Assembly (NCBI GenBank): GCA_028716965.1
Contig: JAQUOV010000009.1
Coordinates: forward strand, 22,043-86,042
DNA: 64,000 nucleotides
Reading direction: 5' to 3'
Origin: Candidatus Omnitrophota bacterium
GTDB taxonomy: Bacteria; Omnitrophota; Gorgyraeia; Gygaellales; Profunditerraquicolaceae
The translations under genes and the position numbers were made by a program. Positions 13,710 to 55,065 of the stretch are shown in pieces. The notes below the pieces were generated by a model. It searched no databases, was not told the DNA's origin, and saw nothing but the letters and a program-made list of their open reading frames with translations. The stretch's first letter is position 1, and each line of letters opens with the position of its first letter.

Positions 13710-14099
13710 CTATTTCTGCAAAACATTTTTTATCGCTTTGATTAACTTTTCAGAATCACAAGGCTTGGTTAGATAGATATCCGCTCCGATAACCCTGCCG
13801 ACAATACGGTCAACATCGGTATCTTTACCGGTCAGCATGATAACCGGAATCTTACTAAAGACGGGGTCCCTGCGGATCTCTTTACAGACCTCTTCGCCAT
13901 TTAACTTAGGAAGCATGATATCCAGGATTACCACGTCGGGATTGTCGCTTTTTATTTTTTTTAATGCCTCCTCCCCGTCAAAAGCGGCAATCACCTCATA
14001 ACCATTGGCCTCCAGCCTGAGTTTGAGAATTTTTAAGAAATCAACCTCATCATCAACAGTAAGGATTTTCTTTTTCTTGCCACCATTGTTATTAGTCAT
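13710..14099 (-). CDS. Single-domain response regulator (CheY-like receiver)
   Basis: 129 aa with the motifs ILTVDDE, phospho-acceptor D in VILDIMLP, and LTGK…KPCD. Confidence 0.85.
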   Translation of the reverse strand: MTNNNGGKKKKILTVDDEVDFLKILKLRLEANGYEVIAAFDGEEALKKIKSDNPDVVILDIMLPKLNGEEVCKEIRRDPVFSKIPVIMLTGKDTDVDRIVGRVIGADIYLTKPCDSEKLIKAIKNVLQK

Positions 14100-14162
14100 T
14101 TTCTTACCCTATGGTTTTCTCATACTGCCTGCGTATTCTCATCCTAAATTATGGAATTCCAG

Positions 14163-14531
14163 CTATCCTATAAACTTTCTTACCTTTTCCAGCAACTCTT
14201 TTGAATCAAAGGGCTTCATTATACAATCATCCGCGCCTATTTCTTTTATTTTTTCGGGCAGGCTAAGCCTGATTGCGCTGGCGGTAAATAAAATAACGGG
14301 GATATTCTTATATTTGTCATCGGATTTCAACTTCCTGCAAAGTTCATCCCCCTGCATCTTAGGCAGGAGCAGATCCAGTAATATTAAATCCGGGGTATCT
14401 TTTTGCAAGATGACTATTGCCTCCTCGGCATCGACTGCAGGTATGATCTCATAGCCTAAGTGCCTCAATCTGACCGTGGCAACCTCCATAATATCCGGTT
14501 CATCATCAACCACAAGGATCATTTTTGCCAT
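14163..14531 (-). CDS. Single-domain response regulator (CheY-like receiver)
   Basis: 122 aa with the motifs ILVVDDEPD, ILLDLLLP and FTAS…KPFD. Confidence 0.85.
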   Translation of the reverse strand: MAKMILVVDDEPDIMEVATVRLRHLGYEIIPAVDAEEAIVILQKDTPDLILLDLLLPKMQGDELCRKLKSDDKYKNIPVILFTASAIRLSLPEKIKEIGADDCIMKPFDSKELLEKVRKFIG

Positions 14532-14532
14532 A

Positions 14533-15918
14533 TCAGGCCCTCCGCTCTTTAATGGGCAATGAAAAATAAAAAGCCGTGCCTTTGCCGAATTCCGATTCTA
14601 CCCAGATCTTCCCCCTGTGCGCTTCTATTATTTTCTTACAGATGGACAGGCCAAGCCCTGTACCACCTACCTTTCTCTGTAATTGCGTAAATTCATGGAA
14701 CAGCTTTGCCATGTTCTCCTCTTTTATACCTATGCCCGTATCTTTAACCATGACTTGAACAAAATTATCCCCCTTAGCGGTACTAATAACAATACCTCCC
14801 TTTTCGGTAAATTTAAGCGCGTTATTTACCAGGTTGGTTAAAACCTGGATTATTTTATCCCTGTCAAAACTGGCCTGCGGGAGGTTCTCGCATAGCCTGA
14901 CCTCAAAAGCCAGCCCCTTCTTCTTAAACAAAAGCATCATGGAATCCTGTATCCCGCTAACTATCTTATTCATATCGCTGTCTTCTATATTGAATTCCAT
15001 CTTCCCGGATTCAAACTTCTGGAAATCTAAGACCGCGCTAATCAACCTGTCCAGCCTGTCCACATTATTCTTAACTATATTTAAGTACTTCTCTTGTTCC
15101 CCGTTAATGTCGCCCGTTATCTTATCCAAAACCACGGATACCCCTTCCTTGATACTGGCCAACGGTGTCCTTAATTCATGGGAAACAATACCGGTAAAAT
15201 CTGACTTTACCCTTACCGCTTCCGTAAGTGCTTCTTCTGCTTTTTTACGCTCGGTGATATCGCGGACGAGGATCAGGGATGCCTGACGGCCGTCCCATTC
15301 GGTCTGGCTGGAGCGGATTTCTCCGATACCCGCCTGGCCGTCCTGACGGATAATGCCGATCTCATTCATCTGTCCGGAAACAACCGCTATGCCAAAACTC
15401 TTGCCTATAAAATCATCCTTATTTACCCCAAAAATGCTCTCCGCGGAAGGATTGCAAAAACAGACTATGCCGTTATTATCCGTCACGATTATCCCATCAG
15501 CAGATTTTTCCACAATATTAAAAAAACTCTGCTTGCTTTTTTCAAGCGCGGCTTTGGCAACCTGCAGCTCTTCTTCCGCACGCTTCCTCTTTATAGACAA
15601 AAATACGGTAATTCCTGCGACACTTGCAAATATGACAATCCTTATCAAGGCCTGCTTGATTACTGACGGGTCTTTTGTAAAAGCAATGATCAGGGCAAAA
15701 TAAATAAACGCGAGGATAACGGAAAAAACAAAGCCTCTCTTTAGATAATACAGGCAGGCAATGATAATCGGGATGTAGAAAAGGTTTTGGAAGATAATGA
15801 ACCAGCCGGATGAAAGACAGTAAATGCTTACGGCAATGGTGGCCAATGTGGTTGCGGCAATTAAAACAAAAGGCGGCCAGCCTGAACGGATATTCTCAGA
15901 AGGCTTAGCGGTATTCAT
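14533..15918 (-). CDS. Sensor histidine kinase (4 TM, PAS, HisKA, HATPase_c)
   Basis: H-box SHELRTPL, N-box NLVNNALKF, G-boxes DTGIGI and GGTGLGLSI, plus an upstream PAS segment. Confidence 0.85.
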   Translation of the reverse strand: MNTAKPSENIRSGWPPFVLIAATTLATIAVSIYCLSSGWFIIFQNLFYIPIIIACLYYLKRGFVFSVILAFIYFALIIAFTKDPSVIKQALIRIVIFASVAGITVFLSIKRKRAEEELQVAKAALEKSKQSFFNIVEKSADGIIVTDNNGIVCFCNPSAESIFGVNKDDFIGKSFGIAVVSGQMNEIGIIRQDGQAGIGEIRSSQTEWDGRQASLILVRDITERKKAEEALTEAVRVKSDFTGIVSHELRTPLASIKEGVSVVLDKITGDINGEQEKYLNIVKNNVDRLDRLISAVLDFQKFESGKMEFNIEDSDMNKIVSGIQDSMMLLFKKKGLAFEVRLCENLPQASFDRDKIIQVLTNLVNNALKFTEKGGIVISTAKGDNFVQVMVKDTGIGIKEENMAKLFHEFTQLQRKVGGTGLGLSICKKIIEAHRGKIWVESEFGKGTAFYFSLPIKERRA

Positions 15919-15926
15919 TAAATAAG

Positions 15927-17141
15927 TTAATACAGGTGGACGACATCTTCCGCATGATGCAACGAAAGGAACAACAACATATACTCCCTTAAATGGCGCG
16001 TTATCAGAAAATTATTCTTTACATGCTCCCGGCCATTCTCTCCCAGTTTCCTGGCGTATGCCGGGCTGCTTAAGAGTTGTTTTATAGCAAAGCTGGCCCC
16101 TTCGATTGAATGACAAAGCAAACCCGAATATTTATGTTTTATCTGTAAGGGAATCCCTCCGACATTTGAAGCTACAACAGGTTTTGCTTTCCATAACGCC
16201 TCTGAAACAGTCAAGCCAAATCCTTCTTTGATAGACTTTTGCACAATTACATCTGAGGCCCTTTGCAACGCGTTGATCTCTATATCATTTTGAGGCAACA
16301 GCAAAATATGAATATCCGGGTCATTCTTGGCTTTTTCCTGAACCTCCTTTAATACTTTAAACCCTTCCGGGTCATCATCCGCGGCTCCTCCGGCCAAGAT
16401 CAGCTGACAATTAATATATTTTTTTACCTGCAGGTATGCTTCAATTACGCCTACCGGGTCTTTCAGGCGGTCAAAACGCGATATCTGCGTGATAATCGGC
16501 TTGTCTTTCTTGATATCGTATTTCTTTAATACCGCATCAATCTTCTCCTGCGGCAATTCTTTATTCTTGTCGCTTAAAGGGTCAATAGAAGGAGAGATCA
16601 GGAATTGCCTGATCGGCAACTTCCGGGAAAAGTCCGGGGCAGAGAATACCGCGGAGTCGTAATGCACTATGAAATCCATAAGAAAATCCCAAGCTTTTTT
16701 ACTGGGGTTAGATACGTCAATATGGCAGCGCCAAATCCATTTATTATCGGCTTTCTTTTTGATCAAGGCTATCGGCTGCGGGTCATGGACAAAAACTATA
16801 TCTCCGTATGTATTGACATTGGCGATATTTTCCTGGCTTGTCTGCATAAATATCTCAAAGTCTCTTTGGGTTATCTCCTCGGGCCTGCCGTGCAAGGCAT
16901 TATGGAACTTCTTGGTTACCCCAAAAAACTGCTCTCCTCCTTTTATAACATCCCATTTCGTGTCTACCCCTAATTCCCTTAACAAAGGCACCATGCGGCT
17001 TAATATCTCCGCCACCCCGCCGCCTACAGGAGTAGAATTTATATGCTGGATGACCTTGCCTTTTAACCGCTCGCCAAGCAACATTAGGTCGTCAATAACC
17101 GCCTGCCCTACCAAAGGTATATATTCTTCTATTTTTGCCAT
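15927..17141 (-). CDS. treT: Trehalose glycosyltransferring synthase TreT (GT4)
   Basis: 404 aa. Strong motif-level similarity to archaeal and bacterial TreT: HINSTPVGGGVAEIL, FFGVTKKFHNAL, VHDPQP…WRCHID, PPSIDPLS, ITQISRFDRLKDP, DDPEG, LQRASDVIVQKSIKEGFGLTVSEALWKAKPVV, NFLITRHLREY. Confidence 0.8.
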   Translation of the reverse strand: MAKIEEYIPLVGQAVIDDLMLLGERLKGKVIQHINSTPVGGGVAEILSRMVPLLRELGVDTKWDVIKGGEQFFGVTKKFHNALHGRPEEITQRDFEIFMQTSQENIANVNTYGDIVFVHDPQPIALIKKKADNKWIWRCHIDVSNPSKKAWDFLMDFIVHYDSAVFSAPDFSRKLPIRQFLISPSIDPLSDKNKELPQEKIDAVLKKYDIKKDKPIITQISRFDRLKDPVGVIEAYLQVKKYINCQLILAGGAADDDPEGFKVLKEVQEKAKNDPDIHILLLPQNDIEINALQRASDVIVQKSIKEGFGLTVSEALWKAKPVVASNVGGIPLQIKHKYSGLLCHSIEGASFAIKQLLSSPAYARKLGENGREHVKNNFLITRHLREYMLLFLSLHHAEDVVHLY

Positions 17142-17813
17142 TTAACCGGTTATCCTTTTTTCAACTGCCTGTATAATCTTATTCCTTAAATCCTCCAAGG
17201 TGCAGGTATAAGGGTCAAATCCGGATATCTTATCCGCTAATTCTTTATCTCCCAGAGAATTTTCTATCCAGTATGAAAAATCATTTGTCGGCTTTTCCAG
17301 CCTAAGGCGCGCTTCAAAGATATGGAAATAAATGGAATCTATGGTGATCTTCTTTAAAACCTCCGCAAATTCCGAGAGGTCATAAACAATATAATTTGTC
17401 GGCAGGATAAAACTTACGGACTTAATAAAATGGAATTCTTCCCCGCTTCTGGCAAACTTCAATTTGGCAAACGGGCTATCCCTTAAATGGTCTTCAATGG
17501 TTAAAGCGATTTTTTCCCGCAGGTCACGGATGGTGGAATATTGCATGGTATCAATACTAACCAGCTTCTCCCCCAGCTCATCCTCTCCGAGAATTTCCGT
17601 TACCCAATAGGCAAAATCATTAGGAGGTTCGGGAGATAGGTATTGATGCTGTTGCAGAAACCTATGAGTATGATGATAGATACATGAACCGGGGACCTCC
17701 TTGATAAATGTTAAGAGCTGGCCCAAAGTAGAGGCACGTAACCCGGTCAGCTCCGAAAGGTGCAGCCTGGTGCAAAACTTAAACGGGTCTTTTGCTCTTA
17801 TTAATTCCGGCAT
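17142..17813 (-). CDS. Conserved hypothetical protein with an internal tandem duplication, TreT-associated
   Basis: 223 aa with two repeats of about 75 aa (NDFAYWVTEILGEDELGEKLVSID…IRDLREKIALTIEDHL and NDFSYWIENSLGDKELADKISGFD…LEDLRNKIIQAVEKRI). It abuts treT with no gap. Confidence 0.5.
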   Translation of the reverse strand: MPELIRAKDPFKFCTRLHLSELTGLRASTLGQLLTFIKEVPGSCIYHHTHRFLQQHQYLSPEPPNDFAYWVTEILGEDELGEKLVSIDTMQYSTIRDLREKIALTIEDHLRDSPFAKLKFARSGEEFHFIKSVSFILPTNYIVYDLSEFAEVLKKITIDSIYFHIFEARLRLEKPTNDFSYWIENSLGDKELADKISGFDPYTCTLEDLRNKIIQAVEKRITG

Positions 17814-17820
17814 AATTTAC

Positions 17821-18612
17821 CTACTTTGAATCCGATATGAAACGCAAAAACCTGGTTACTTCCTTTGTATTTTCCAGATAGTAATCCGCTTCGGAATTAG
17901 CGGGTTTGCCCACAACAACCGTCAACCCCTTGTTTTTTAATGCTTTAAAAGCATCTTCATCGGTAACGTCATCGCCTATGTATACGGGTAGGATCCCGTT
18001 TTTATTCTGCACAAACTTCTGCCTTGCCAAAAGCCACAAAACAACCTTTCCCTTATCCCAGTTCAAGGCAGGCCTTATCTCAAATATCTTCTTCCCCGGC
18101 TTAACCTGGATCTTATTCTTTCCCAAACAGGAAATAACGCTTTCATGAAAAACGCTTTCAATAAAAGCAAGGTGCTCTTTATCAACAAGCCTGAAATGCA
18201 GGACCAGGGATAATTTTTTATCCTCTATAAGAACGCCTTTTATTCCCGAAAGCTTTTCTTTCAGCCTGGCCTTGATACTCTGCAATGTTTCTATATAGCC
18301 GGCAGGCACCGCTAATTCATATTTTAGCTTTGGCCCTTCAATTTGAAAACCGTGTACACCCGAATAAATAATATCATTTAGGCCGACTATCCTCTTCAGG
18401 TCGCCTAAAGACCTTCCGCTGATAATTGCTATCCTGCAGTTATCCTTCTGCGACAGGAGCCTGAGCAATTCTTTTGTTTCCTGGGGGATCTCCACCTTGT
18501 CCGGAGTATTGACAATCGGCGCCAATGTGCCGTCGCAATCAAGAAACAAAAACAGTGATTTGCCCCCGATAGTCTCTTTTATCTTCTTTAAATCATCAAA
18601 AATATAGCGCAT
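17821..18612 (-). CDS. otsB: Trehalose-6-phosphate phosphatase OtsB (HAD family)
   Basis: DCDGTL motif I, SGR motif, and the GDDVTDEDAF motif. Confidence 0.85.
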   Translation of the reverse strand: MRYIFDDLKKIKETIGGKSLFLFLDCDGTLAPIVNTPDKVEIPQETKELLRLLSQKDNCRIAIISGRSLGDLKRIVGLNDIIYSGVHGFQIEGPKLKYELAVPAGYIETLQSIKARLKEKLSGIKGVLIEDKKLSLVLHFRLVDKEHLAFIESVFHESVISCLGKNKIQVKPGKKIFEIRPALNWDKGKVVLWLLARQKFVQNKNGILPVYIGDDVTDEDAFKALKNKGLTVVVGKPANSEADYYLENTKEVTRFLRFISDSK

Positions 18613-18618
18613 CTTCTA

Positions 18619-19674
18619 TCAGGATGCTTTTTCCTGTTCGTAGTTTATCGCCCTTATCGGATAGGGGATATTTATGCCTTCCTGCAAATAGCGCTTATGC
18701 AGCCTCTTGATAAACTCATGCTTGATCAGGTACTGGTCAACAAATTCCTTAGCCCTTAATATTACCGTAAACTTAATGCTGGAATCTCCGAAAGCGTTAT
18801 AGCGGATAAACGGGTCAAAATAGGCCACCCCGCCGCTTACATCCGTCATCACGGATTTTGCCACTTCGCAGGTAATCTTTTCCACTTTTTCCAGGTCGCT
18901 CTTATAATGCACCCCCAGGTCAACTAAAACCGCCATCTCCTTATCCGGCAAATAATAGTTGGTAACAATGATCTTGCTTAATTTATCGTTCGGTATAAGG
19001 ATGAGGTTATTGGGCAACATCTTGATCTTGGTCGAACGCCAATTGATATCAACCACATAGCCTTCTTCGCCGGTTTCCAGTTTAACATAATCTCCTACCC
19101 TTATCTGCTTGGCCACAGTTATATGAAAACCGGCAAACAGGTTTGAGAGGGTATCCTGTAACGCCAAGGCCACTGCCAAGCCCCCCACGCCTAAAGTTGC
19201 CAATACCGGAGTTATGGATATACCTAAACTGTTAAGGATTACCAGCGTGCCGACACAGTAAACAAAGATCCTGGCAATATTCTGGGTAAGAGTGGTGACA
19301 GGCAGGGCAGAATCAATCCGGGAGGCGTAAACTCTTATTACCCCGGACAAAAGGTTTGCTAATGTTAATACTACGGAAATTAAGCCCAGGACAAAGATAC
19401 TCTTGCCCATAACATCCACGATATTGCCTGAAAGATTTGAAAACTGCAACGCAAAATACAAGGCCAGGACCAAACATAAAAACGTAAAAGGGGCCCTCAC
19501 TGCCTGCACAATGACATCATCCAGTTGCGTAGATGTTTTTTTGGCCCAATATGAAAACCGGCTAAAGATTATCTTCTTGACGATAAAGCCTATAGACAAA
19601 ACTACCAAGAAAATGATTAACGGCATGAGTATTTCGGCTAAACCCGCTAATTTTAAAAGTAAATCTTTATTCAT
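18619..19674 (-). CDS. MscS-family mechanosensitive channel
   Basis: 351 aa with 3-4 N-terminal TM helices, a conserved pore helix (…GVGGLAVALALQDTLSNLFAG…) and a C-terminal beta domain. Confidence 0.8.
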   Translation of the reverse strand: MNKDLLLKLAGLAEILMPLIIFLVVLSIGFIVKKIIFSRFSYWAKKTSTQLDDVIVQAVRAPFTFLCLVLALYFALQFSNLSGNIVDVMGKSIFVLGLISVVLTLANLLSGVIRVYASRIDSALPVTTLTQNIARIFVYCVGTLVILNSLGISITPVLATLGVGGLAVALALQDTLSNLFAGFHITVAKQIRVGDYVKLETGEEGYVVDINWRSTKIKMLPNNLILIPNDKLSKIIVTNYYLPDKEMAVLVDLGVHYKSDLEKVEKITCEVAKSVMTDVSGGVAYFDPFIRYNAFGDSSIKFTVILRAKEFVDQYLIKHEFIKRLHKRYLQEGINIPYPIRAINYEQEKAS

Positions 19675-19683
19675 TCATGCCTC

Positions 19684-21981
19684 CTAAGTTATATTCTTTA
19701 AAGCAACCAGCTCGTTAATGATATTAGCGGCCCAGCGGTAAATATTATTTTCAGCTATAACCTTTCGCATATTTTCCATACGCCTCTGCTTTTCTTCTTT
19801 CGGCATCTCGATCGCAAGTTTTATGCTGTCCGCAAACTCCTCGATAGAATAGGGGTTGACTAAGATGGCATCGGTAAGCTCACGGGAGGCGCCGGTAAAC
19901 TGGCTTAAGATCAGGGCCCCGGATAAATCATCCTTCTCTGCCACATATTCTTTAGCCACCAGGTTCATCCCATCATGCAGGGAACTGACAATACAAATAT
20001 CACCAAGCTTATAATAAGGATGGATGTCATCCTGGGAAAAATGTTTTTTAAGGTAGATTATCGGCTTCCAATTCCCGTCTATATGCTTCCAGTTAATCCT
20101 CTCCACCAGCTCGTCAATCTCCCCGCTTAAATCATGGTAACGTTTGATATGCGTACGGCTTGGAGCGGCCAACTGCATAAACACAAATTTCTTTTTATAT
20201 TCAGGATACTTCTCCAGAAACCTGTCTATAGCCAAGATCCTCTCGACTATTCCCTTAGTGTAATCAATCCTGTCTACGCCCACAGCAATAATCTCATCCT
20301 TGAGCTCAAACTCTTTCTTCAGCTTTTCCACCTGCCTTATCGGGTCAACCTTAAATGAACCATCATCAATATGGGCTTTAATGCTTATGGGGAAAGCCCT
20401 GATAAAAGTCTCTTTCCCTAAACGCACGACACTGAATTTCTCTGTGTCTACGCGTGATTCAAGCAGGCGGTTGGCAGTATCAAGAAAATTATTACAATGA
20501 TTTTGTACATGAAAACCGATCAAATCGCATCCCAGCATACCTTCCAGGATTTCATTTTGGTAGGGGCAGATCATAAAAGCCTCCGGAGTAGGCCAGGGGA
20601 TGTGCCAGAATAAGGCAATTTTTGCATCCGGGCGCTTATCTTTTATCATCTTCGGCAAGAGAGTAAAATGATAATCCTGCACAAATATAAAAGGGCTGCT
20701 TGCCGGCAGCTCCTCCAAAACACTATCGGCAAACTTCTGGTTTACTTCCTTATACATGCGCCAGTCAAACTCCCTGAAAACAGGGCGAGTATGCGTATTA
20801 TGGCATAAAGGCCACAGGCCTTCATTTGAGAAACCGTAATAATACCCCTGCTCCTCCTCTTTATTCAACCAAACCCTTTTCAGGATATAGCGGTTATCTT
20901 CCGGCGGCACGCCAAGCTTATCTTTAGAATTAACGAATTTCCTGTCGAAGTTGCCGCTGCCGCTAGCAACCCATGTGCCGCCGCAGGCGGAAAGTATGGG
21001 ATGGAGTGCAGTAACCACTCCGCTTGCCGGCCTTATGCATATAGGCTTGCTCGTGCTCTCATCAAAAATATGCATATACGGCTCCCTGTTGGAAACAACG
21101 AATAATGAATTATCTCCCAACTTTGCGTGGATGAGGTCTTTGAGCTTGGATTCTGTCCAAAGCTCCTCCTTCTGCAGGCGTACATGTGCTTCATCGGATA
21201 TGGTACGGCGGGCCACCCTTATGCTTAAAGCTACCTGCTCTACTTCACTAATAAGCTTTCCAAATTCCCCTTTTTCTTGAAAAGGCTGTAATTTATCAAT
21301 CTCCCCTCTCTGGAAATGCTTAAACCATTGGGTCAGGCGGCGCACGGGAACGATAAAAATCTGCCTCTGGATTAACAGGGCGATCAAGACGATCAACAAA
21401 ATAAGCGTTATGGAGGTTACGCTTATTTTCCTCCATAATTCAGTTAAGGTAGCAAACATGTAAGAGGTATCATAAATTACCTCCACCATCCCTAATACGT
21501 TTCCTTCATCATCCAGAACGGGCAAAATATAACTATATACGGAATATTCTTTAAATTTCTCCAAAGCTCCGCGGGGCTTCTTCAAAGACAGGATATCCTT
21601 AAGATAGGGCCTGTCTCTCTGTTTAAAGTCAGAAAAACGTTCGGTAATAGCTAATATCTGACCGTCCTTATCATAAATGACGCAGCCCTGCAGCCTTTCC
21701 CTTTTCTGGAAACTATCGACTAAACGGTTGGCTTGCTTTAAATCGTTATTAATAAGTATATATTTGGCGGATAATTCCAGGCTTTCATCCACAGACCTGG
21801 CTTTTCTTTTCAGATCATCCATCAGCTTGTCTTCGGTAAAACGGGCCTGCATAATACCCGAGATAGCGAATCCAAGCGCAACCAGGATTAATATCGGAAG
21901 GATAAAAAGAAGGATTCTTTTCATTAATTGATCTCCAAAAAACAGCCACCTGATTATTAAATCAGATGGCGGCCCAACCAT
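19684..21981 (-). CDS. otsA: Sensor-fused trehalose-6-phosphate synthase: TM, Cache-like periplasmic domain, TM, HAMP, OtsA (GT20)
   Basis: The C-terminal 480 aa or so carries GT20 OtsA motifs (LWPLCH, FWHIPWP, DLIGFH, VDRIDYTKG, SLHDGMNLVAKEY). The N-terminal 280 aa has two TM helices flanking a Cache-like segment (YSYILPVLDDEGNVLGMVEVIYD) and a HAMP-like helix. The likely true start is the Met at about 21924 (GGAG RBS, MKRILLFILPILIL). The first 19 codons of the track ORF are probably not translated. Confidence 0.85.
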   Translation of the reverse strand: MVGPPSDLIIRWLFFGDQLMKRILLFILPILILVALGFAISGIMQARFTEDKLMDDLKRKARSVDESLELSAKYILINNDLKQANRLVDSFQKRERLQGCVIYDKDGQILAITERFSDFKQRDRPYLKDILSLKKPRGALEKFKEYSVYSYILPVLDDEGNVLGMVEVIYDTSYMFATLTELWRKISVTSITLILLIVLIALLIQRQIFIVPVRRLTQWFKHFQRGEIDKLQPFQEKGEFGKLISEVEQVALSIRVARRTISDEAHVRLQKEELWTESKLKDLIHAKLGDNSLFVVSNREPYMHIFDESTSKPICIRPASGVVTALHPILSACGGTWVASGSGNFDRKFVNSKDKLGVPPEDNRYILKRVWLNKEEEQGYYYGFSNEGLWPLCHNTHTRPVFREFDWRMYKEVNQKFADSVLEELPASSPFIFVQDYHFTLLPKMIKDKRPDAKIALFWHIPWPTPEAFMICPYQNEILEGMLGCDLIGFHVQNHCNNFLDTANRLLESRVDTEKFSVVRLGKETFIRAFPISIKAHIDDGSFKVDPIRQVEKLKKEFELKDEIIAVGVDRIDYTKGIVERILAIDRFLEKYPEYKKKFVFMQLAAPSRTHIKRYHDLSGEIDELVERINWKHIDGNWKPIIYLKKHFSQDDIHPYYKLGDICIVSSLHDGMNLVAKEYVAEKDDLSGALILSQFTGASRELTDAILVNPYSIEEFADSIKLAIEMPKEEKQRRMENMRKVIAENNIYRWAANIINELVALKNIT

Positions 21982-22099
21982 CTTAAAAATTACCTCCGGA
22001 GACTATAGGCTATCTCCAGACCGCTTATTAATCTGTATTTATTATACTACTTTCAATTAATACCTCAAGAGGTATCTTGGATTATAGGTAATTACAGTA

Positions 22100-23137
22100 T
22101 CAAATCGATCCGGCCTTATTCATTTCAATACGTATCCGCGGCAGGCTCTCCGGAAAACGCTGCTGTAAAAACTCAAGCAATTTTTCCCTGACTTCGCAAC
22201 GCAGATCCCACATGGTAGGAGAATCCCCCGCGCTCATCAAGGCGCGCAGCTCAACTGTTTTATCAGTGGCGTTGGTAACCTGCAGCACATTTACCTTTTT
22301 ATCCCATTTCGGGCTGTTCTCCAGGATGCGCGTTAATTCATTACGCACTTCTTTGACTGGAACGCTATAGTCGGTATAAATAAAAACCGTCCCCAGTAAA
22401 TCCGCCGAAGTGCGCGTCCAATTCTGGAATGGCTTTTCAAGGAAATACGATATCGGCACCACCAGGCGCCGCAGGTCCCATATCCGCACTACCACAAAAG
22501 TCAAAGTGATCTCCTCAATCCACCCCCATTCATCCTCTATAATTACCACATCATCCAGACGGATTGGCTGGGCTATGGCTATCTGGATACCGGCGATAAA
22601 ATTACCCAGTGTCTTCTGGGCAGCAAAACCTATAACTATACCGACAACCCCCGCGGAAGCCAATATGCTCACGCCTATATGCTTGACCTGCGGGAAGCTT
22701 ATCAAGATAAAAGAAATAGTCAGCAAGACTATGACCACGACTAAGATATTTGATATCACGCGCATCTGCGTATGCATGCTGCGGGCACGTATATTGTCAG
22801 GCGTATTTATATTGTAACGCTTAAGAAGCGCATCGCGAAAGATGTAAACAACCTTAATGACAAGCCAACCAAACAACGCAATAAACAAAAGATGCATAAA
22901 GTTAGCGATAAATAAACGTGTCTTCGCCGGTATCTTCAATAGAGGCAAAACTGCTGAAACGCAGAAAGCGGGCATTAAAAAACGCAACGGGCTTTTAAGC
23001 AACGCCAGGTTAACTTCAAGCAATTTTGAAGACAGGCTACCTCTCCGCTTGATGAGAAATACGGCAATTAGATAAAATACCCAACCGAGAATAAAACCGG
23101 AGGCTATTAAAATACCAGAAAACATATAATCATCCAT
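22100..23137 (-). CDS. MscS-family mechanosensitive channel (second copy)
   Basis: 345 aa with a conserved MscS pore region (…VGIVIGFAAQKTLGNFIAGIQIAIAQPIRLDD…). Confidence 0.75.
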   Translation of the reverse strand: MDDYMFSGILIASGFILGWVFYLIAVFLIKRRGSLSSKLLEVNLALLKSPLRFLMPAFCVSAVLPLLKIPAKTRLFIANFMHLLFIALFGWLVIKVVYIFRDALLKRYNINTPDNIRARSMHTQMRVISNILVVVIVLLTISFILISFPQVKHIGVSILASAGVVGIVIGFAAQKTLGNFIAGIQIAIAQPIRLDDVVIIEDEWGWIEEITLTFVVVRIWDLRRLVVPISYFLEKPFQNWTRTSADLLGTVFIYTDYSVPVKEVRNELTRILENSPKWDKKVNVLQVTNATDKTVELRALMSAGDSPTMWDLRCEVREKLLEFLQQRFPESLPRIRIEMNKAGSI

Positions 23138-23154
23138 GATCTTAAATCCTTTCC

Positions 23155-24495
23155 TTATTTACCTATAGCGGTTATTTTACCAGGGGGCATCCGGCGGACG
23201 GAAAGGTTATTTTCCCGCCCGCTATATTTTACCAGCCGCCTTGATTTAGGTTTGGAAGAAGAGTGGGAAAAGAACCTAAAGTTGGTCCAGTATTCTACTC
23301 CCGGCTTAAAACGTGATAAACCTGCCACTTGCTGGGCCTTAAACAATAGTATGCTGACAAATAAAATAAAAACCGGCAGGATAAACAGCAGGCGCCTGAA
23401 CAGAAATCGCCCTTCCTGCTTCAACCCGATTATGCAGGGGAAAATACCAAAGAGCATTACCACGCCTATGCCTCCGACAAAATCAAGCGCGCTAAGGAAT
23501 ATATTCGGATAGATGAGGGCAATGACCAAAGGAGGCATGAAAGAAAGAGCCATGGTCAACCTCCTGTCCTTTAGCTTAATAAAATTTACTGTAATGTCAT
23601 CGATAAAATCCATCGTGGTATTGCCGAAAGATAAGTAGGAAGTGATAATAGCCATGAGGGCGAAAAAAAGCGAGAGAGGATAGAATAAGCGTATCTTTAT
23701 TGCCTGGGCCAAAGGCACGGTGGCCGGCAGATTATTAGAAAGCGCGTTTGTAATACCGTTATTGCCCGATAGCGGCAATACCCCGATGCCGACCTGTATC
23801 CATAATGAATTCATGATAAAACCGATAAGCGTACCGATAGATATGGCCAAGAATACCCTCTTAAAATTCCAATCCAAATGTTTGCAGACAGTCGGTATGA
23901 TATTGTGAAAATTCGCCGCCATTACGATAATCGGAAGCGCTGCCGGCAGCATTGCCCAATCAACGTGCTGGAAACGCTGGGGGACTACGTATCTTTCACC
24001 CATTAAGACGATAGCTATAAAAGAAAGCAGTAATAACCCCACAAATAAAGCATTACATTTAAGAAGCGCCCTGGGGTTAGCTATAGTGATCGCTGTCACA
24101 GGCAGGAAGAATAATAATATGACTAATTCCCTGGAAATATGTATATTCGTAAACCTGACGATAATAGCAGTGGCGCCGGTAATATATACTACCAGCGAAC
24201 CATAAAGGATGATCAGGTTAGCCAGAGTAGCTATCCATTGCCCGCAGGGACCGAAATACTGCCGATACATGCTCGGATAATGGAATACTTCCTGGTGCGT
24301 CCTTACCGCCTCTTTCCCCAGTATGAAAGCGGTCAAAAACATAGCGCAGCTTATTGCAAAAGTCCCAACCAGGGAAGGCAACAGCCCTGCGGGACCGGTC
24401 TTGATAGGAAGCCCTAAAATCCCTGCGCCTATAAGATTACCCGTTATAAAACAAGTAACCATTATTACGAGGGAAAAGGAAATTTTTTTATTCAT
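23155..24495 (-). CDS. Amino-acid permease of the HAAAP (Trp/Tyr/Ser permease) type
   Basis: 446 aa with 11 TM helices. The N-terminal GNLIGAGILGLP motif is typical of TnaB/Mtr/TyrP-type permeases. It has an unusual basic C-terminal tail. Confidence 0.65.
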   Translation of the reverse strand: MNKKISFSLVIMVTCFITGNLIGAGILGLPIKTGPAGLLPSLVGTFAISCAMFLTAFILGKEAVRTHQEVFHYPSMYRQYFGPCGQWIATLANLIILYGSLVVYITGATAIIVRFTNIHISRELVILLFFLPVTAITIANPRALLKCNALFVGLLLLSFIAIVLMGERYVVPQRFQHVDWAMLPAALPIIVMAANFHNIIPTVCKHLDWNFKRVFLAISIGTLIGFIMNSLWIQVGIGVLPLSGNNGITNALSNNLPATVPLAQAIKIRLFYPLSLFFALMAIITSYLSFGNTTMDFIDDITVNFIKLKDRRLTMALSFMPPLVIALIYPNIFLSALDFVGGIGVVMLFGIFPCIIGLKQEGRFLFRRLLFILPVFILFVSILLFKAQQVAGLSRFKPGVEYWTNFRFFSHSSSKPKSRRLVKYSGRENNLSVRRMPPGKITAIGK

Positions 24496-25195
24496 TTATA
24501 ACAGGGTCATGCCTGGCTGCCGAGAATATCCTGCTGATAGCGTCCTCCTTGGCATAGCAGATTAACTCATCGTCTACCTTAAGGACAACATCTCCATGCG
24601 GAGCGCCGATGAATACTGTTTTTTTGCCTTCTTTACGATAAATAGCTAAAATAAGCACCCCTTCCAGCTACATCTTTAAGTCTTTTATTGACTTCTCACT
24701 GCAGGGGTTATCCTTTTTTACGGTAATCTTTGCTATCGCGTAGCCCTCTCCTAAGCCAAACAACTGCTCGTAATCATAAATGCGCAAGGTCGTCCATTTT
24801 TCAAGTGCCTTGGTAATCACAACCTTCATCACATTGTAAATATATTTTGAGCGGGCAAGGATAAAAATACACAACAGCCCTGATAATAATACTTCTCCTC
24901 TTACAAGAACGCTCTTGCCTGTCAAGCCTACGAATGCCAATACGAGCGTTGCGATGGCAGTAGTCACTCCTGCGCTGCCCCAAAGAATAAGGATTTTTAT
25001 AATACGCCTGCGCACGGGATGCGTAACAATAGCCTCGGATTCAACGGTAGTAAAACCAGCCCCCGAGAACGCCGACTGAGCCTGGAAAGAAGCTATTTCG
25101 GAAGATAAACCGGTAAGCTCTAAAGCAATAGCGCCTATCCTGACTACGATAATTGAGAGTATAATAATTATTAGTAAACTAAATAAAGCGATCAT
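24488..25195 (-). pseudogene. Membrane protein with C-terminal RCK_C (TrkA-C) domain interrupted by an in-frame TAG (24668-24670)
   Basis: The track ORF 24668-25195 ends …YDYEQLFGLGEGYAIAKITVKKDNPCSEKSIKDLKM then TAG. The same frame continues LEGVLILAIYRKEGKKTVFIGAPHGDVVLKVDDELICYAKEDAISRIF…, completing a canonical RCK_C domain. The final stop overlaps the ATG of the downstream permease (ATGAATAA). Confidence 0.55.
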
Positions 25196-25292: not shown

Positions 25293-26294
25293 TCAATTGA
25301 GTAATGCCTCCACAGAGGATAAGATTTGCAGGATCGATTTCTTCTTATTAGGAATATAGCAGCCCGCTATATCAAAATGCCCTCCGCCTTTGTATTCCTG
25401 CGCAACCTTGCCTATATTAATATCGCCTTTGGACCTTAAGCTTACTCTTAATGTCTTGCTATCCTTTTCCCTGAATAATACCGCGATCTCAATCCTCTTC
25501 ATGGAATTCATTTCGTTTGCTATCGGGTCAGCATCATAAACTTTTCCCCCGACCATGGCAATGTCCCTGCTCCTTAGCATTGACCAGATGATCCTTCCTT
25601 TTTTCAGGAATTTAGCCCTCAATAAAGAAATAGCCAATAGCATCATACTTTCTTTTGTCCTTGAACCATAAACCTTATCTACCAGTTGAGAAAAATTTAT
25701 CCCCTCTTTCAACAGTTGCGCGCATATTTTAAAGGTAACAGGCCTGATCTGCGTCAATTTGAATAAATTAGTTTCCACAATTACCGAAGTAAGAAGATTT
25801 TCGGCTATCTCCCGGTTTATTTTAATATTTAATTTTCTTAAAAGAAAGAACACCAATTCACCCACGGCAACTGCCTTGTAATCGACAATCTGCATATCGC
25901 CGAAAGGTACTCTGAATTCATGATGGTCTATCTCAAGTACGGATTTTGCTTTTTTGAATACCGGGATATTCTTACCCAAAAGACCGATAATACTGCAATC
26001 AACGGCTATTGCCAAATCCACTCTCTTCCTTGTTGTCCTGACTATACGCTCTGCGCCGGGCAGAGACCTGTAGCTTGGAGGTATTTCGTCCTGGCATAGC
26101 ATATATACCTTCTTGCCAAGGCCGCTCAAAGCCAGCCCCAGCGCCAGAAGCGAACCTATTGAATCGCCGTCCGGATAGACGTGGCCGGAGATAGCTATGC
26201 TATTTGCCTTCAGTATCTTCTGCCGGATATTTTTAAAACCCTTCATATGCTTTTTCGGCGTTTCGCCAGGCTGTTTATATCTTTTCAACCTCAA
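25293..26294 (-). CDS. DHH/DHHA1 phosphoesterase (NrnA/DhhP-like; candidate c-di-AMP and nanoRNA phosphodiesterase)
   Basis: DHH motifs (ISGHVYPDGDSIGS, DHH in EIDHHEF) and a DHHA1 GGGH motif. It overlaps the cdaA fusion gene by about 20 nt, and an internal Met may be the true start. Confidence 0.8.
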   Translation of the reverse strand: MRLKRYKQPGETPKKHMKGFKNIRQKILKANSIAISGHVYPDGDSIGSLLALGLALSGLGKKVYMLCQDEIPPSYRSLPGAERIVRTTRKRVDLAIAVDCSIIGLLGKNIPVFKKAKSVLEIDHHEFRVPFGDMQIVDYKAVAVGELVFFLLRKLNIKINREIAENLLTSVIVETNLFKLTQIRPVTFKICAQLLKEGINFSQLVDKVYGSRTKESMMLLAISLLRAKFLKKGRIIWSMLRSRDIAMVGGKVYDADPIANEMNSMKRIEIAVLFREKDSKTLRVSLRSKGDINIGKVAQEYKGGGHFDIAGCYIPNKKKSILQILSSVEALLN

Positions 26295-27729
26295 TAGTTA
26301 TTTTTACATCAGGAGGCTTATCTCCTGGAAAACGGACCTCCGCCGGGATAATGAGCTTGGGGGTTATAGTTGCTGTTTCTGTTATTGACCTTAATTCAAC
26401 AGGCTCTGTTGCAATGAAGATTCTTTTTAAATCTACCGTATCGGGGACCTTAACCAATACCTCCTGAGGTTCAACCTTTATCTCCTTAATATTGACTCCG
26501 GAAGGCGCGCGGCCATTCGTCTTTATCTGTACGGGGACACTGGCGGATATCATCTTATATAATTTGATCGGAATCTCCTTCGGCTCTATATTGACCAGAG
26601 AAAGCCCGGCGGGCTTGCGTACCATATCCTTATCCAGATAATATTTCCCTTCCCCTTCTTCAATCTTTGACATATCCATGGATAGCTTAAGCTCTTTAGG
26701 GTCAAGAAGGCTGAAAGCCCGTTCCGAACCGCTCAGGGTAATGGTTACATCCTTAGGTTTCGTCTCGCTGATTATCCTGTCCTGGGCAAGATTACGGTAT
26801 TCGACCGGGATGACAAAGTCGCGGCGGATCGTTTCCGTGCGGTGCCCAAATGCCAGCCATAGAGCAGAGACCAGAATGACAGCAATAATCTTTTCCGGGA
26901 AATGCCCTTTTAAAAAATTCATCGAGAGCACTTTATGTTTTGCAGGAAATTTCTCTCTATAGAACTTCTCTAAAATATTACGCACTTTTCCGATATCCTC
27001 TAATTGCGTTATCTTGCCATCTTCTGCTACCGAAATCGTACCCCGTTCCTCTGAAATAACAATACAGAGCGCGTCTGTGCGCTCGGCAAGGCCTAATGCG
27101 GCGGCATGACGCGTACCTAAATGCCCAACCTCTTCTATATTTGTAGAAAGAGGCAGGTGGCAGCCAAACATGGCAAGCCGCGTTCCCTCAATAATAACCG
27201 CTCCATCATGACTTGGGCTGTTGGGTTCAAAGATACTCTCGATCAGCATCTGGCTCAGCAGTGCATCTGAACGTATCCCCGTTACAAGATAACGGTCCAA
27301 TGGGTCCTGTCCCTGCACGACAATTAAAGCGCCGATTTTCTTACGCGAAAGGTTGGCCAGTCCGCTGGTTAACATAGCAATTCCATGGTCTTGTGAAGAA
27401 ACTGACGGGCTGCGTCGCGCTATTCCCCAAATAGCTATCCGCTCAAAAAAATGGCGGAAATCATCCTGGAAGATAACTACAATCATAATAAGAAAAATGG
27501 CAAAGAACGCCTGAAACACCATAGTAGTCAGATAGAGGCCGAAAAAACGCGCTAAAATATAAATAAAACCCAATATAATCATCCCCATCATGATAAAGCG
27601 CACTCGCGCTTTCTCAAGCCAGACCAGGATTATATAAACAAAGATGGATATAATGCTTATATCGATAAAATCGACAAATCTGAATGTCTGGAAGAATTCC
27701 GCAATCTTTTCAAGTATTTTAGCAACCAT
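26275..27729 (-). CDS. cdaA: Diadenylate cyclase CdaA fused to a YbbR/CdaR-like domain
   Basis: N-terminal 3 TM helices, then a DAC domain (DGAVII, GTRHAAALG). This is followed by a TM segment and a C-terminal region of about 220 aa with YbbR-like beta repeats. Confidence 0.8.
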   Translation of the reverse strand: MVAKILEKIAEFFQTFRFVDFIDISIISIFVYIILVWLEKARVRFIMMGMIILGFIYILARFFGLYLTTMVFQAFFAIFLIMIVVIFQDDFRHFFERIAIWGIARRSPSVSSQDHGIAMLTSGLANLSRKKIGALIVVQGQDPLDRYLVTGIRSDALLSQMLIESIFEPNSPSHDGAVIIEGTRLAMFGCHLPLSTNIEEVGHLGTRHAAALGLAERTDALCIVISEERGTISVAEDGKITQLEDIGKVRNILEKFYREKFPAKHKVLSMNFLKGHFPEKIIAVILVSALWLAFGHRTETIRRDFVIPVEYRNLAQDRIISETKPKDVTITLSGSERAFSLLDPKELKLSMDMSKIEEGEGKYYLDKDMVRKPAGLSLVNIEPKEIPIKLYKMISASVPVQIKTNGRAPSGVNIKEIKVEPQEVLVKVPDTVDLKRIFIATEPVELRSITETATITPKLIIPAEVRFPGDKPPDVKITIEVEKI

Positions 27730-49123: not shown

Positions 49124-49963
49124 TTACTCTTTCAGCCATTGCTGCGGCGGGTTACGCAGGAAACGTTCGGTGAATATACTATCATTTAAGCCTATATTGT
49201 AAGATATATCGCTAAACTCCGTAACGGTATCGGAGTTTGAGTTTAAATCCATGGCCTTCATCCTGGTAACAGTAGGATAATTCTGGATATCCTTTACTTC
49301 AAGGGCTTCAATAGTACGGTAAGGCTTGCCTGTTTTATCAAAATACTCTGCCCTCATCGGGACAAAGTTATTCCTGTCAATCTTGACCGTATAATACGAA
49401 AACTCAACTAATGCCGCGTCCTTAGGCGTATTCTTTACGGTGTAGTAAGCTGGGTCGCTGGCAATCAACTCATGCTCATCCAGGTCTATGGACCTGCCGG
49501 ATATATCCTCGTACAAAAATGTAGTGCCGACAAAACTTGAGCGTTTATCAGAAGCGGCGATACGGCGCACCAGGTCCATAGCCGGTAGATATAGCCAACG
49601 GTCATCATCCTTACCCACATGCTTCCAGACTATATAACTCATTCCTTTAACGTCATTTGGCTTATGGAAATACACGTAATATTTCTGGTCTCCCCCTGCT
49701 TTAAGGTTAAGTTTTAAGATCGTCAACTGGCGCTCTCGCTTGCGGCCCTGCGCGTCAGTTACTACCATCTTTGCCTTGGCCCTTCCCTCCTTACCCTGGT
49801 AATAAGAAGCATTGTTTGCCTTGCTGACGATCTCATCAACGCTTAGCTCCTGGGCCCAGGAGTAAGCGGCAAAAAATAGCACTGCTAAAAAAACTAATAA
49901 TTTTCTCATCTTCCCTCCTTTAATTTCAGGTACCATCTTTACATGTTTTCTGCCGCGAAACAA
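49124..49963 (-). CDS. LolA-like outer-membrane lipoprotein-sorting family protein (MMPL-associated)
   Basis: Secreted protein of about 280 aa. This fold family typically sits next to MMPL/HpnN-type RND exporters. It overlaps the MMPL gene by 38 nt. Confidence 0.5.
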   Translation of the reverse strand: MFRGRKHVKMVPEIKGGKMRKLLVFLAVLFFAAYSWAQELSVDEIVSKANNASYYQGKEGRAKAKMVVTDAQGRKRERQLTILKLNLKAGGDQKYYVYFHKPNDVKGMSYIVWKHVGKDDDRWLYLPAMDLVRRIAASDKRSSFVGTTFLYEDISGRSIDLDEHELIASDPAYYTVKNTPKDAALVEFSYYTVKIDRNNFVPMRAEYFDKTGKPYRTIEALEVKDIQNYPTVTRMKAMDLNSNSDTVTEFSDISYNIGLNDSIFTERFLRNPPQQWLKE

Positions 49964-52982: not shown

Positions 52983-53942
52983 TTATTTCACAGCATCCAG
53001 TGATTTAATATATTTGTAATAATCGCTGTCCGTTGTCAGGATCACCGTGGATTTGGCGTCAATGGTATGCTTATAAGTCTCAAGGGTCTTCATAAAGGAA
53101 TAAAAATCGGGGTTCTGGCTGTATGCGGCAGCGTATATGTTGATCGCCTCGGCATCCGCCTTACCGGTAATAATCTGCGCCTGCCGGTAAGCCTCCGAAG
53201 TAATCGCCTTTAATTCTTTGGCTACCTGCCCTTCTATTTCGGCAGATTTGCCCTGCCCCTCGGAACGGTATTTCTCCGCGGCGCGCTTTCTTTCGGCGAT
53301 CATACGGTCATAGACTTTATTACGCACGTCCTCCACGTAATTTATGCGTTTGATGCGCACATCAATGATCTCAATGCCGTATTGGGGGGCAAGCACCTTT
53401 GCCTTCTCTAAAATGACCCCCTCCAGCATTTTCCTGCCTACTTCAATGTGTTCCAGCGCCTCATCCGTAACGATCATATCCTCGCCATCTACCCTGGACT
53501 CCAGGATACGGTTAGAATCCCTCACCGCTTCTACCAGGAGATGACTGGTGATAACGTCACGGGTGGCGGAATTGATGATATCATCGAGCCTGCCCTGGGC
53601 GCTCATTTCGTTGCCTACCGACTGCAGGAATTTCAAGGCGTCAACGATCTTCCAGCGGGCGGTAGCATCCACCCAGATATATTTTTTGTCTTTAGTAGGT
53701 ATCTGGTTGGGGTCGCCGTCCCAATCCAGGAGCCTTTTGTCAAAATAATGCGCCTGTTGAATTAACGGCTGTTTGAAATGCAGGCCCGCCGAGGTAATCG
53801 GATCGCCCACCGGCCTTCCGAATTGCGTAATCACCGCCTGCTGCCCTTCACTGATTATATATACAGCGCCGAAGGCAAAAGAAGCGCCTACAACAATGAA
53901 TAGTACGGCAAAAATAGTGATCGTCAAACGTAACGCTTTCAT
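52983..53942 (-). CDS. hflC: HflC (SPFH/band-7 protease modulator)
   Basis: N-terminal TM, SPFH domain, and a C-terminal …NPDFYSFMKTLETY…DSDYYKYIK signature shared with HflC. Confidence 0.85.
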   Translation of the reverse strand: MKALRLTITIFAVLFIVVGASFAFGAVYIISEGQQAVITQFGRPVGDPITSAGLHFKQPLIQQAHYFDKRLLDWDGDPNQIPTKDKKYIWVDATARWKIVDALKFLQSVGNEMSAQGRLDDIINSATRDVITSHLLVEAVRDSNRILESRVDGEDMIVTDEALEHIEVGRKMLEGVILEKAKVLAPQYGIEIIDVRIKRINYVEDVRNKVYDRMIAERKRAAEKYRSEGQGKSAEIEGQVAKELKAITSEAYRQAQIITGKADAEAINIYAAAYSQNPDFYSFMKTLETYKHTIDAKSTVILTTDSDYYKYIKSLDAVK

Positions 53943-54969: not shown

Positions 54970-55002
54970 AAAAAACCGCCTTCTACCTTCGTAGATGGCG
55001 GC
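54970..55002 (-). terminator. Intrinsic terminator (GCCGCCAUCUAC…GUAGAAGGCGG plus U6) located 30 nt upstream of the hflK start and downstream of the 14-codon upstream ORF
   Basis: The stem has one mismatch and is followed by UUUUUU. It also serves as the terminator for the GT4 gene. Confidence 0.5.
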
Positions 55003-55020
55003 CCGACCATCAGATTGCCT

Positions 55021-55065
55021 TCAGAAATACAAATTATCTCTGAACCCAAAATATTTTATTTTCAT
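55021..55065 (-). CDS. Candidate 14-aa leader peptide MKIKYFGFRDNLYF with an AAGAGGAG RBS
   Basis: ATG at 55063-55065 preceded by AAGAGGAG. 5 of 14 residues are Phe or Tyr. It sits between a sigma70-like promoter and the terminator. Confidence 0.3.
   Translation of the reverse strand: MKIKYFGFRDNLYF

Follow-up and report, generated by a model that had tools for sequence, protein, structure and literature searches.

A trehalose-6-phosphate synthase fused to a transmembrane Cache-HAMP module and preceded by a terminator-bearing nhaA-I riboswitch in Omnitrophota

Why would an enzyme of compatible-solute synthesis begin with the input half of a membrane receptor? The question is raised by a gene that we call sensor-OtsA, found in a Candidatus Omnitrophota bacterium within a 64,000-nucleotide stretch of DNA (the window: GenBank assembly GCA_028716965.1, contig JAQUOV010000009.1, positions 22,043 to 86,042). 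Coordinates below count from the first letter of the window, and all features located in it lie on its minus strand. The original prediction, made from the sequence alone, read the gene as a trehalose-6-phosphate synthase (OtsA) preceded by a transmembrane (TM) segment, a Cache-like segment, a second TM segment and a HAMP domain, and each of these elements, including a complete OtsA domain, is found at the position claimed for it. It also held that the annotated start is probably 19 codons too long, and this proved correct. The raw open reading frame (ORF) has 765 codons (19684..21981), and comparison with known proteins places the true start at Met20 of this long ORF (ATG 21924-21922), because a 746-residue database protein with 100% identity to the window product (P0001) and more than 100 homologues of 745 residues that start with MKR match there. 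The gene thus spans 19684..21924 (746 residues plus stop), with a GGAG ribosome-binding site, read from the sequence, at 21933..21936, 8 nt before the ATG. Residue numbers refer to the 746-residue product unless ORF residues are stated.

Is the fusion real? The source is a metagenome-assembled genome (MAG) and the raw ORF call overshoots at its 5' end, both of which would suit a frameshift, mis-assembly or mis-call that merged a sensor gene with otsA. Recurrence of the same in-frame fusion across independent assemblies and in two phyla refutes this reading, to which we give next to no probability. When one genome per GTDB species was scanned for relatives of the N-terminal module, at least 284 species-level genomes were found to encode one; the best 80 are nearly all Omnitrophota MAGs, a few being labelled Planctomycetales, Elusimicrobia, Spirochaetes or Nitrospirae (labels unconfirmed). 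Sensor and glycosyltransferase (GT20) parts are contiguous and in frame in 80 of 80 loci, wherever a locus extends far enough, and the Omnitrophota-type family comprises more than 120 clusters of 745-residue proteins. The database search for the architecture also yielded a second, divergent clade, whose N-terminus is about 25-30% identical and which keeps the same architecture, linker length and LWT linker motif. This clade fills the Acidobacteriota (Terriglobia, Blastocatellia, Acidobacteriia and 'Acidiferrales') with more than 120 clusters of 750-765 residues; its members include L083 (contig ena:ERZ25039602:contig_67564), P0235 and P0383-P0501. Omnitrophota have this family as their standard OtsA, and in Acidobacteriota it is common; the fusion is widespread, is not an assembly artefact, and is undescribed in the literature that we found. 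Our searches of 8 million full texts returned no description of an OtsA fused to a sensor, HAMP or Cache domain, nor of a GT-B glycosyltransferase regulated by HAMP, in line with the original prediction, which knew of no characterised OtsA with such an input module; the Omnitrophota papers found mention 'trehalose synthesis' only. Databases name the members 'trehalose-6-phosphate synthase'; in JGI annotations this name is sometimes extended by 'HAMP domain-containing protein' or 'uncharacterized membrane protein affecting hemolysin expression'.

The enzyme half is well defined. Residues 274-746 (19687..21105) match the GT20 profile PF00982 with 421.4 bits, against a gathering score of 32.5, over profile positions 3-471 of 473, and in ORF numbering the complete Glyco_transf_20 domain found by Pfam covers ORF residues 293-758 (E=6e-126). 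The closest solved relatives are OtsA of M. thermoresistibile (5jij, E=3e-85), fungal Tps1 and E. coli OtsA (1gz5, E=7e-68); Foldseek comparison with OtsA and Tps1 structures gave E-values down to 7e-38 and target-normalised TM-scores of 0.87-0.90, and the predicted fold is the two-Rossmann GT-B fold. In an alignment of motifs with E. coli K-12 OtsA (from NC_000913.3) and five family members, the SNR arginine, the GG loop, GGxW, YY, LWP, DYH, the HIP histidine, the arginine and lysine of RxDYxKG, the SR arginine and the aspartate and glutamate of DGMNLVAKEY are conserved, the sole change from E. coli OtsA being a serine for the first glycine of the GG loop. We take these motifs, from published OtsA structures, to be those of substrate binding and catalysis; the SNR arginine of E. 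coli OtsA contacts the phosphate of glucose-6-phosphate. Judged by its motifs, the domain is catalytically intact. The predicted activity, formation of trehalose-6-phosphate from UDP- or ADP-glucose and glucose-6-phosphate, is supported indirectly, because a trehalose-6-phosphate phosphatase (OtsB) scoring above its equivalog cut-off stands in the same operon and this operon is conserved. The NCBIfam equivalog cut-offs for the enzyme itself are not reached (TIGR02400 OtsA, 429 against 564.85 bits; NF011071 TPSP, 480 against 634), with OtsA/TPSP still the best NCBIfam match, ahead of glucosylglycerol-phosphate synthase (314 bits). No second GT20 gene was found in the window.

What stands in front of this enzyme? 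Hydropathy gives two TM segments only, at about residues 4-24 and 166-189. TM1 (residues 4-24, 21853..21915) reaches 2.9 in a 19-residue Kyte-Doolittle window and is preceded by MKR, and TM2 (residues 166-189, 21358..21429) reaches 3.0 and is followed by the positively charged stretch IVPVRRLTQWFKHF. Because MKR precedes TM1 and VRR..K.. follows TM2, in agreement with the positive-inside rule, the N-terminus is predicted to be cytoplasmic, residues 25-165 to lie outside and the remainder to be cytoplasmic. We considered whether TM1 is a signal peptide that is cleaved off and rejected this: it lacks an AxA-like site, the AlphaFold2 (AF2) models show one continuous helix over residues 2-59, and the kinase relatives have the same arrangement.

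Residues 25-165 (21430..21852) are assigned to a periplasmic single-Cache/PDC sensor domain. Two AF2 monomer models, of the full-length protein and of its N-terminal 280 residues (mean predicted local distance difference test, pLDDT, 79.5 and 78.8), both place long helices at 2-59 and 154-205, the second of which runs through TM2; between them lie a short helix and, over 80-152, a five-stranded sheet with two small helices. After a loop (206-219) come a helix (220-251), a short break, another helix (258-268) and the first GT-B strand. The models thus show the long N-terminal helix and, behind it, the PAS-like antiparallel sheet expected of the Cache/PDC fold, along with a HAMP-like helix-loop-helix and the GT-B fold. 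Pfam sCache_3_2 matches the N-terminal 280 residues with 29.6 bits against a cut-off of 28.4 (27.1 with the full ORF as query) and is matched by 19 of 24 family members; several further Cache-family matches over ORF residues 50-180 are sub-threshold. SMP_2 and CHASE8 matches in some members represent related periplasmic sensor families and, being weaker than sCache_3_2, were not adopted. Searched against the PDB, the family profile finds the WalK extracellular domain (E=0.0016), and the closest structural relatives of the periplasmic domain are CitA, DctB, KinD and chemoreceptor ligand-binding domains. Profile matches and predicted fold together bear out the 'Cache-like' description.

Within the Omnitrophota clade, F72, Q79, G80, C81, Y84, T94, P135, G145 and W164 are invariant in this domain, and R75, E76, R77, R96, Y130, E148 and D152-S154 are conserved in at least 90% of sequences; no known ligand motif was identified in the Cache domain, which shows conserved polar and aromatic residues only. 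One of these positions is worth a remark of its own. Cys81 (21682-21684, in the Q79-G80-C81 motif at 21682-21690) is the single invariant cysteine, lies in strand 1 of the periplasmic domain, and is missing from Acidobacteria-type fusions and kinase relatives; a role in redox chemistry, metal binding or an inter-subunit disulfide is conceivable. In one homologue of 864 residues (P0076) the periplasmic Cache segment is tandemly duplicated, turning a single into a double Cache, which might reflect either a natural change from sCache to dCache or a repeat created in assembly.

The HAMP domain (residues 190-245, 21190..21357) consists of an AS1 helix with P193 and G207, a connector, and an AS2 helix with G222 and an EVEQVAL stretch. 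It has the expected shape, a helix-connector-helix of about 50 residues directly after the last TM segment with proline at the start and glycine at the end of AS1, and P193, G207, G222 and EVEQVAL are invariant. HAMP is matched by 13 of 24 family members at E<=0.1 (best E=6e-6) and by the divergent fusion P0279 with 26.5 bits, and the family profile matches Af1503 HAMP structures over residues 190-238 (E about 0.08). The strongest evidence for the identity of this domain is that homologous kinases carry HAMP in the aligned columns. NCBIfam already finds a weak resemblance of the first 260 or so ORF residues to the N-termini of sensor kinases such as WalK, MtrB, CreC and BarA. An exhaustive search of the N-terminal alignment profile against 1.8 billion representative proteins returned 383 clusters at E<=1e-10, among them bona fide histidine kinases aligned over positions 9-258 or so. 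Five of these, checked with Pfam (P0290, P0301, P0313, P0318 and P0359; E about 1e-19 to 1e-24 to the profile), have HAMP at 31-58 bits (50-58 in P0290, P0301 and P0313, in the aligned columns) with HisKA and HATPase_c after it; three more (P0355, P0357 and P0364) count as kinases through their similarity to P0290 in phmmer. The sensor-HAMP part is thus homologous to the input modules of working kinases, with the kinase core replaced by GT20 in this lineage. Neither Pfam nor NCBIfam finds HisKA/DHp or HATPase_c on the window protein, in which GT20 follows HAMP; as far as domain content tells, sensor-OtsA is not a histidine kinase and has the input module alone in common with kinases.

Between AS2 and the first beta-strand of GT20 runs a conserved helical linker with an LWTE motif (residues 246-273, 21106..21189), in which W256, T257, E258, K260, L261, A267 and G270 are at least 90% conserved and whose LWT motif is common to the Acidobacteria-type fusions. 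Counted from E229 in AS2, the SNR arginine (R280) lies 51 residues away in 210 of 221 sequences (49-52 in the others), whereas the HAMP connector ranges in length from 34 to 39. Among 42 full-length Omnitrophota members, mean pairwise identity is 75% in TM1, 69% in the periplasmic domain, 60% in TM2, 74.5% in HAMP, 74% in the linker and 79% in GT20, which indicates that the sensor part is under selection similar to that on the enzyme. A conserved linker of fixed length, ending a few residues before a substrate-binding arginine, is what mechanical coupling would need. We lean towards the view that sensor-OtsA is a receptor-enzyme, its activity regulated by a signal through the sensor-HAMP module.

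Could the N-terminal module instead be a mere membrane anchor or dimerisation scaffold inherited from a kinase ancestor? The enzyme would then be a constitutive OtsA held at the inner membrane, for instance near MscS or OtsB, and all regulation would fall to the riboswitch upstream of the gene (see below). That riboswitch already gives stress-responsive control, a ligand site is not identifiable from the sequence, the HAMP score of the window protein is sub-threshold, and TM2 is the least conserved segment. However, a Cache fold of 140 residues, in which 35 of 141 columns are at least 90% conserved (5 strictly invariant within 25-165) at the mean identity given above, would be superfluous in an anchor, as would an intact HAMP domain with its invariant P193, G207 and G222 and a linker of fixed length, and these features persist across two phyla. 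Given the Cache fold, the homology to kinase sensor modules and conservation about as high as that of the enzyme, we consider a mere anchor unlikely.

If sensor-OtsA is regulated by a signal, the signal need not be a ligand. The TM helices and HAMP might respond to a physical stimulus, be it tension or lateral pressure in the membrane, or ionic strength or K+ at its face. Such a stimulus would suit the osmotic genomic context, which includes two MscS channels, a Li+/Na+ riboswitch and a nearby cyclic di-AMP (c-di-AMP) cyclase, and TM1 is well conserved. By contrast, R75, E76, R77, Q79, C81, Y84, T94, R96, Y130, E148 and D152-S154 resemble a binding surface, and the closest structural relatives, CitA, DctB, KinD and the chemoreceptor domains, bind ligands, WalK, with no ligand known, being the exception. 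We think a purely physical stimulus distinctly improbable, and what probability it has forms part of that granted to signal regulation as a whole. Signalling might also run from the inside out, as in LapD: GT20 would sense the state of sugar nucleotide, glucose-6-phosphate or trehalose-6-phosphate and, through HAMP, make the periplasmic domain bind or release a partner. All catalytic and substrate-binding motifs are kept, OtsB follows in the operon, no conserved periplasmic partner gene was seen, and the best structural matches are kinase input domains, all of which makes this arrangement very improbable.

We accordingly return to outside-in regulation and propose how a receptor-enzyme of this kind would work. 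From a cytoplasmic N-terminus the chain would pass through TM1, the periplasmic Cache domain, TM2, HAMP and the linker into beta-strand 1 of GT20, and would dimerise through HAMP by analogy with the kinases that carry the homologous module. The HAMP bundle would switch its state in response to a ligand in the periplasm or to a membrane or ionic cue, and this change, passed on by the rigid linker, would shift the position or closure of the GT20 N-lobe, or acceptor binding, and with it the rate of trehalose-6-phosphate synthesis. The direction and sign of the regulation, the ligand and the dimerisation, like the Li+ versus Na+ specificity discussed below, are things that we infer, whereas the domain architecture with its homology and conservation, the operon, and the riboswitch with its terminator are shown directly.

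Several points weigh against signal control of the enzyme. No GT-B glycosyltransferase controlled by HAMP is known to us; OtsA enzymes, for their part, are as a rule soluble and form dimers or tetramers, and the geometry of these assemblies may be incompatible with a parallel HAMP dimer. The window protein's own match to Pfam HAMP (PF00672), over residues 191-235 (E=0.09), is sub-threshold, at 13.5 bits where the gathering score is 25. The AF2 monomer is weakest (pLDDT 50-70) in HAMP and linker and thus leaves the coupling geometry undefined. The periplasmic residues invariant in Omnitrophota are not conserved in Acidobacteria-type fusions or kinase relatives, so that no common ligand site can be named. 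Finally, GT20 falls below the OtsA equivalog cut-off, and its exact acceptor and specificity are not fixed by the score.

A second layer of control is predicted from the leader. The 175-bp gap between the upstream MscS gene and sensor-OtsA contains a putative sigma-70-like promoter, TTGAGG-N16-TATAAT (22041..22068), which with 10 of 12 matches to consensus, the only ground for the call, is the best-scoring site in 15700-24700. It is followed by an nhaA-I aptamer (21964..22023; Rfam RF03057, of the Li+-I/Na+-II type) composed of a P1 hairpin, an AGGU junction and P2 GAUGGUUGGGCCGCCAUC; the Rfam score is marginal (37.7 bits against a gathering score of 37) and covers the full model, 1-55. A terminator scan located the expression platform, an intrinsic terminator at 21935..21970 with an 11-bp stem (GCCAUCUGAUU/AAUCAGGUGGC) and a U-tract. 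Its 5' arm (GCCAUCU) is the 3' arm of the aptamer's P2, and therefore the two structures exclude each other, as folding also indicates; the leader has the layout of an ON riboswitch, in which ligand binding prevents termination. A PyrR-binding-site match on the leader reached 20.9 bits where 54 are required, and we put it down to a chance resemblance of the terminator. The riboswitch, absent from the original prediction, is also the actual reason why the long ORF is wrong: on this reading of the leader its 19 extra codons are noncoding aptamer and terminator RNA. The peptide MVGPPS, with which the long ORF calls start in the window and in at least two homologues, is a translation of the invariant P2 sequence, so that gene calls starting in this way (at least three sequences) need correction.

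Related loci retain this leader. In 37 loci (L042 and 36 of the 76 that have enough upstream sequence) the P2 motif lies on the operon strand immediately before the fusion gene, in most of them about 60-90 nt, typically about 65, from its start, and in 10 of 17 loci it lies instead upstream of a preceding MscS gene. Each of the seven P1 pairs is supported by double-sided compensatory changes, found in 2-20 sequences per pair among 62 nhaA-I copies, and P2 hardly varies. Of 60 related copies, 56 are followed by a terminator that overlaps P2 with its 5' arm.

Which ion would such an RNA sense? nhaA-I RNAs are Li+-I riboswitches, of which rare terminator-bearing variants from Deltaproteobacteria sense Na+ (Na+-II), with C rather than U at position 54 contributing to Na+ selectivity (PMC9646797). 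The same study tabulated otsA (16), glycosyl transferase (5) and mscS (3) among the genes associated with nhaA-I, suggested an osmotic or Na+ role for the RNAs at such genes, and left Li+ versus Na+ open (PMC9646797). The leader described here passes the Rfam nhaA-I threshold and has, like Na+-II, a terminator that overlaps P2. The Omnitrophota RNAs have U at the nucleotide that we equate with position 54, an equivalence taken from the D. propionicus primer sequence in the supplement with a numbering offset of about 4 nt; this differs from the C of Na+-II and is Li+-I-like, whereas the terminator platform and P1 sequence resemble the Na+-II example. We therefore rejected an assignment of Li+ or Na+ from this nucleotide as ambiguous. 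Since terminator-bearing variants were reported only from Deltaproteobacteria (PMC9646797) and are common here in Omnitrophota, these RNAs may form an unrecognised large group. The sensor on the nhaA-I-associated otsA product was not noted in that work (PMC9646797).

The RNA occurs elsewhere in these genomes as well. A second and stronger nhaA-I riboswitch (50.5 bits) in the window, at 54993-55047, precedes two SPFH/Band-7 genes (53945-54940 and 52983-53942) and an MMPL/RND-type transporter gene (49926-52436), an association that we did not notice in the table of PMC9646797. Further copies lie near the trehalose operon in other Omnitrophota loci, after TreT or several kb upstream (for example L002:14051, L009:14050, L010:13022, L038:14713, L001:1041 and L008:1397).

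Taken together with the receptor-enzyme proposed above, the leader suggests a two-level circuit. The riboswitch, through its terminator platform, would gate transcription of the operon, being ON when Li+ or Na+ is bound, and MscS channels would act as release valves on osmotic downshift. The cytoplasmic load of alkali cations would thus act on the RNA and an extracytoplasmic signal on the activity of the enzyme. Layered on the riboswitch, sensor-OtsA would be the founding example of a HAMP-regulated glycosyltransferase, a transmembrane pathway within one protein whose extracytoplasmic Cache domain directly throttles compatible-solute synthesis without kinase, second messenger or transcription factor; we regard the chances of this as evenly balanced. 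If it is true, external and internal stress signals would be integrated at one gene, and two large, poorly studied phyla, in which the family is either the standard OtsA (Omnitrophota) or common (Acidobacteriota), would control trehalose mainly in this way. Compatible-solute synthesis would be controlled post-translationally from outside the cell, beside the transcriptional and allosteric mechanisms of OtsA. Receptor-HAMP modules drive kinases, cyclases, phosphatases and chemoreceptor arrays; a GT-B output from primary metabolism would extend the HAMP signalling paradigm, and sugar-phosphate synthesis would offer a simple read-out for studies of transmembrane signalling. The pairing with a Li+/Na+ riboswitch makes a testable two-input stress circuit and bears on the question, raised in PMC9646797, of why nhaA-I precedes otsA.

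How does sensor-OtsA compare with known systems? With soluble OtsA and Tps1 enzymes (E. coli 1gz5/1uqu, M. thermoresistibile 5jij, Candida 5hut) it shares the GT-B fold of GT20, 31-34% identity, the catalytic motifs and the pairing with OtsB, but those enzymes are cytoplasmic and have no membrane or sensor module, whereas here about 273 residues of TM-Cache-TM-HAMP-linker precede beta-strand 1. Histidine kinases with a single Cache/PDC domain and HAMP (WalK, the CitA/DcuS type, and the relatives P0290, P0301 and P0313) have a homologous TM1-sensor-TM2-HAMP module of the same topology and length; in sensor-OtsA their DHp and catalytic ATPase are replaced by a metabolic glycosyltransferase, with no phosphotransfer. 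Similar in layout are HAMP-coupled enzymes such as the HAMP-adenylyl cyclase Rv3645 of M. tuberculosis, the Cache/CHASE8-HAMP-GGDEF diguanylate cyclases YfiN/DgcN and the HAMP-PP2C phosphatase SiaA, a weak NCBIfam match of the window protein. All join a transmembrane sensor, HAMP and a helical linker to a directly fused catalytic output, but their outputs handle signalling molecules or phosphoryl groups and are dimeric across the linker, whereas here the output is a GT-B enzyme making a compatible-solute precursor. The msc-gt-tpsp operon of Thermoproteus tenax co-transcribes a trehalose-6-phosphate synthase/phosphatase (TPS/TPP), a GT4 glycosyltransferase and an MscS-type channel, and the glycosyltransferase activates the synthase by complex formation (PMC3634074). 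The gene content is similar and the synthase is regulated post-translationally, as proposed here, but that operon is archaeal, its synthase is fused to the phosphatase rather than to a sensor, activation comes from a partner protein, and there is no riboswitch.

Sensor-OtsA is the first gene of a compact operon, whose other genes follow with gaps of 0-9 bp. These encode an MscS-family channel (18619..19674, 9 bp downstream; Pfam MS_channel 1st, 2nd and 3rd domains), OtsB, two genes downstream of sensor-OtsA (17821..18612; TIGR00685, 166 bits against a cut-off of 68), a DUF5752 protein (17142..17813; PF19027, E=2e-68) and a TreT-like trehalose synthase of family GT4 (15927..17141; TreT_GT1, E=2e-55, and Glycos_transf_1), whose NCBIfam TreT score of 373 bits is under the equivalog cut-off of 775. 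A second MscS-family channel gene (22100..23137; PF00924) lies upstream of promoter and riboswitch, and a permease gene is also found upstream. The order fusion gene, OtsB, DUF5752, TreT is kept in essentially all loci with enough flank, and in about half of the loci the fusion gene has an MscS gene as its immediate neighbour, on the downstream or the upstream side; the upstream second MscS is conserved in few loci only. When MscS precedes the fusion gene in relatives, the riboswitch precedes the channel, and the two placements suggest repeated shuffling within one regulatory unit. One Acidobacteria-type locus, L083, has its fusion gene among response regulators, poly-HAMP kinases and a CsbD stress protein, and neither OtsB nor MscS nor the riboswitch was found near the fusion gene in this one locus examined.

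Wherever a related locus contains both OtsB and TreT, DUF5752 stands between them, and our literature search found no paper mentioning the family; by analogy with the glycosyltransferase activator of T. tenax, it might serve trehalose synthesis as an accessory or regulatory subunit. Some 3-6 kb upstream of the operon (25293-27729) lie a CdaA-type diadenylate cyclase (CdaA_N-DAC-YbbR in one ORF of 484 residues) and an adjacent DHH/DHHA1 phosphoesterase; since c-di-AMP is an osmoregulatory messenger, the region looks like an osmotic- and ion-stress neighbourhood. At the other end, 8 bp after TreT, a PAS-HisKA-HATPase kinase is followed by two stand-alone receiver-domain proteins (13710-15918), and these genes may be co-transcribed with the operon.

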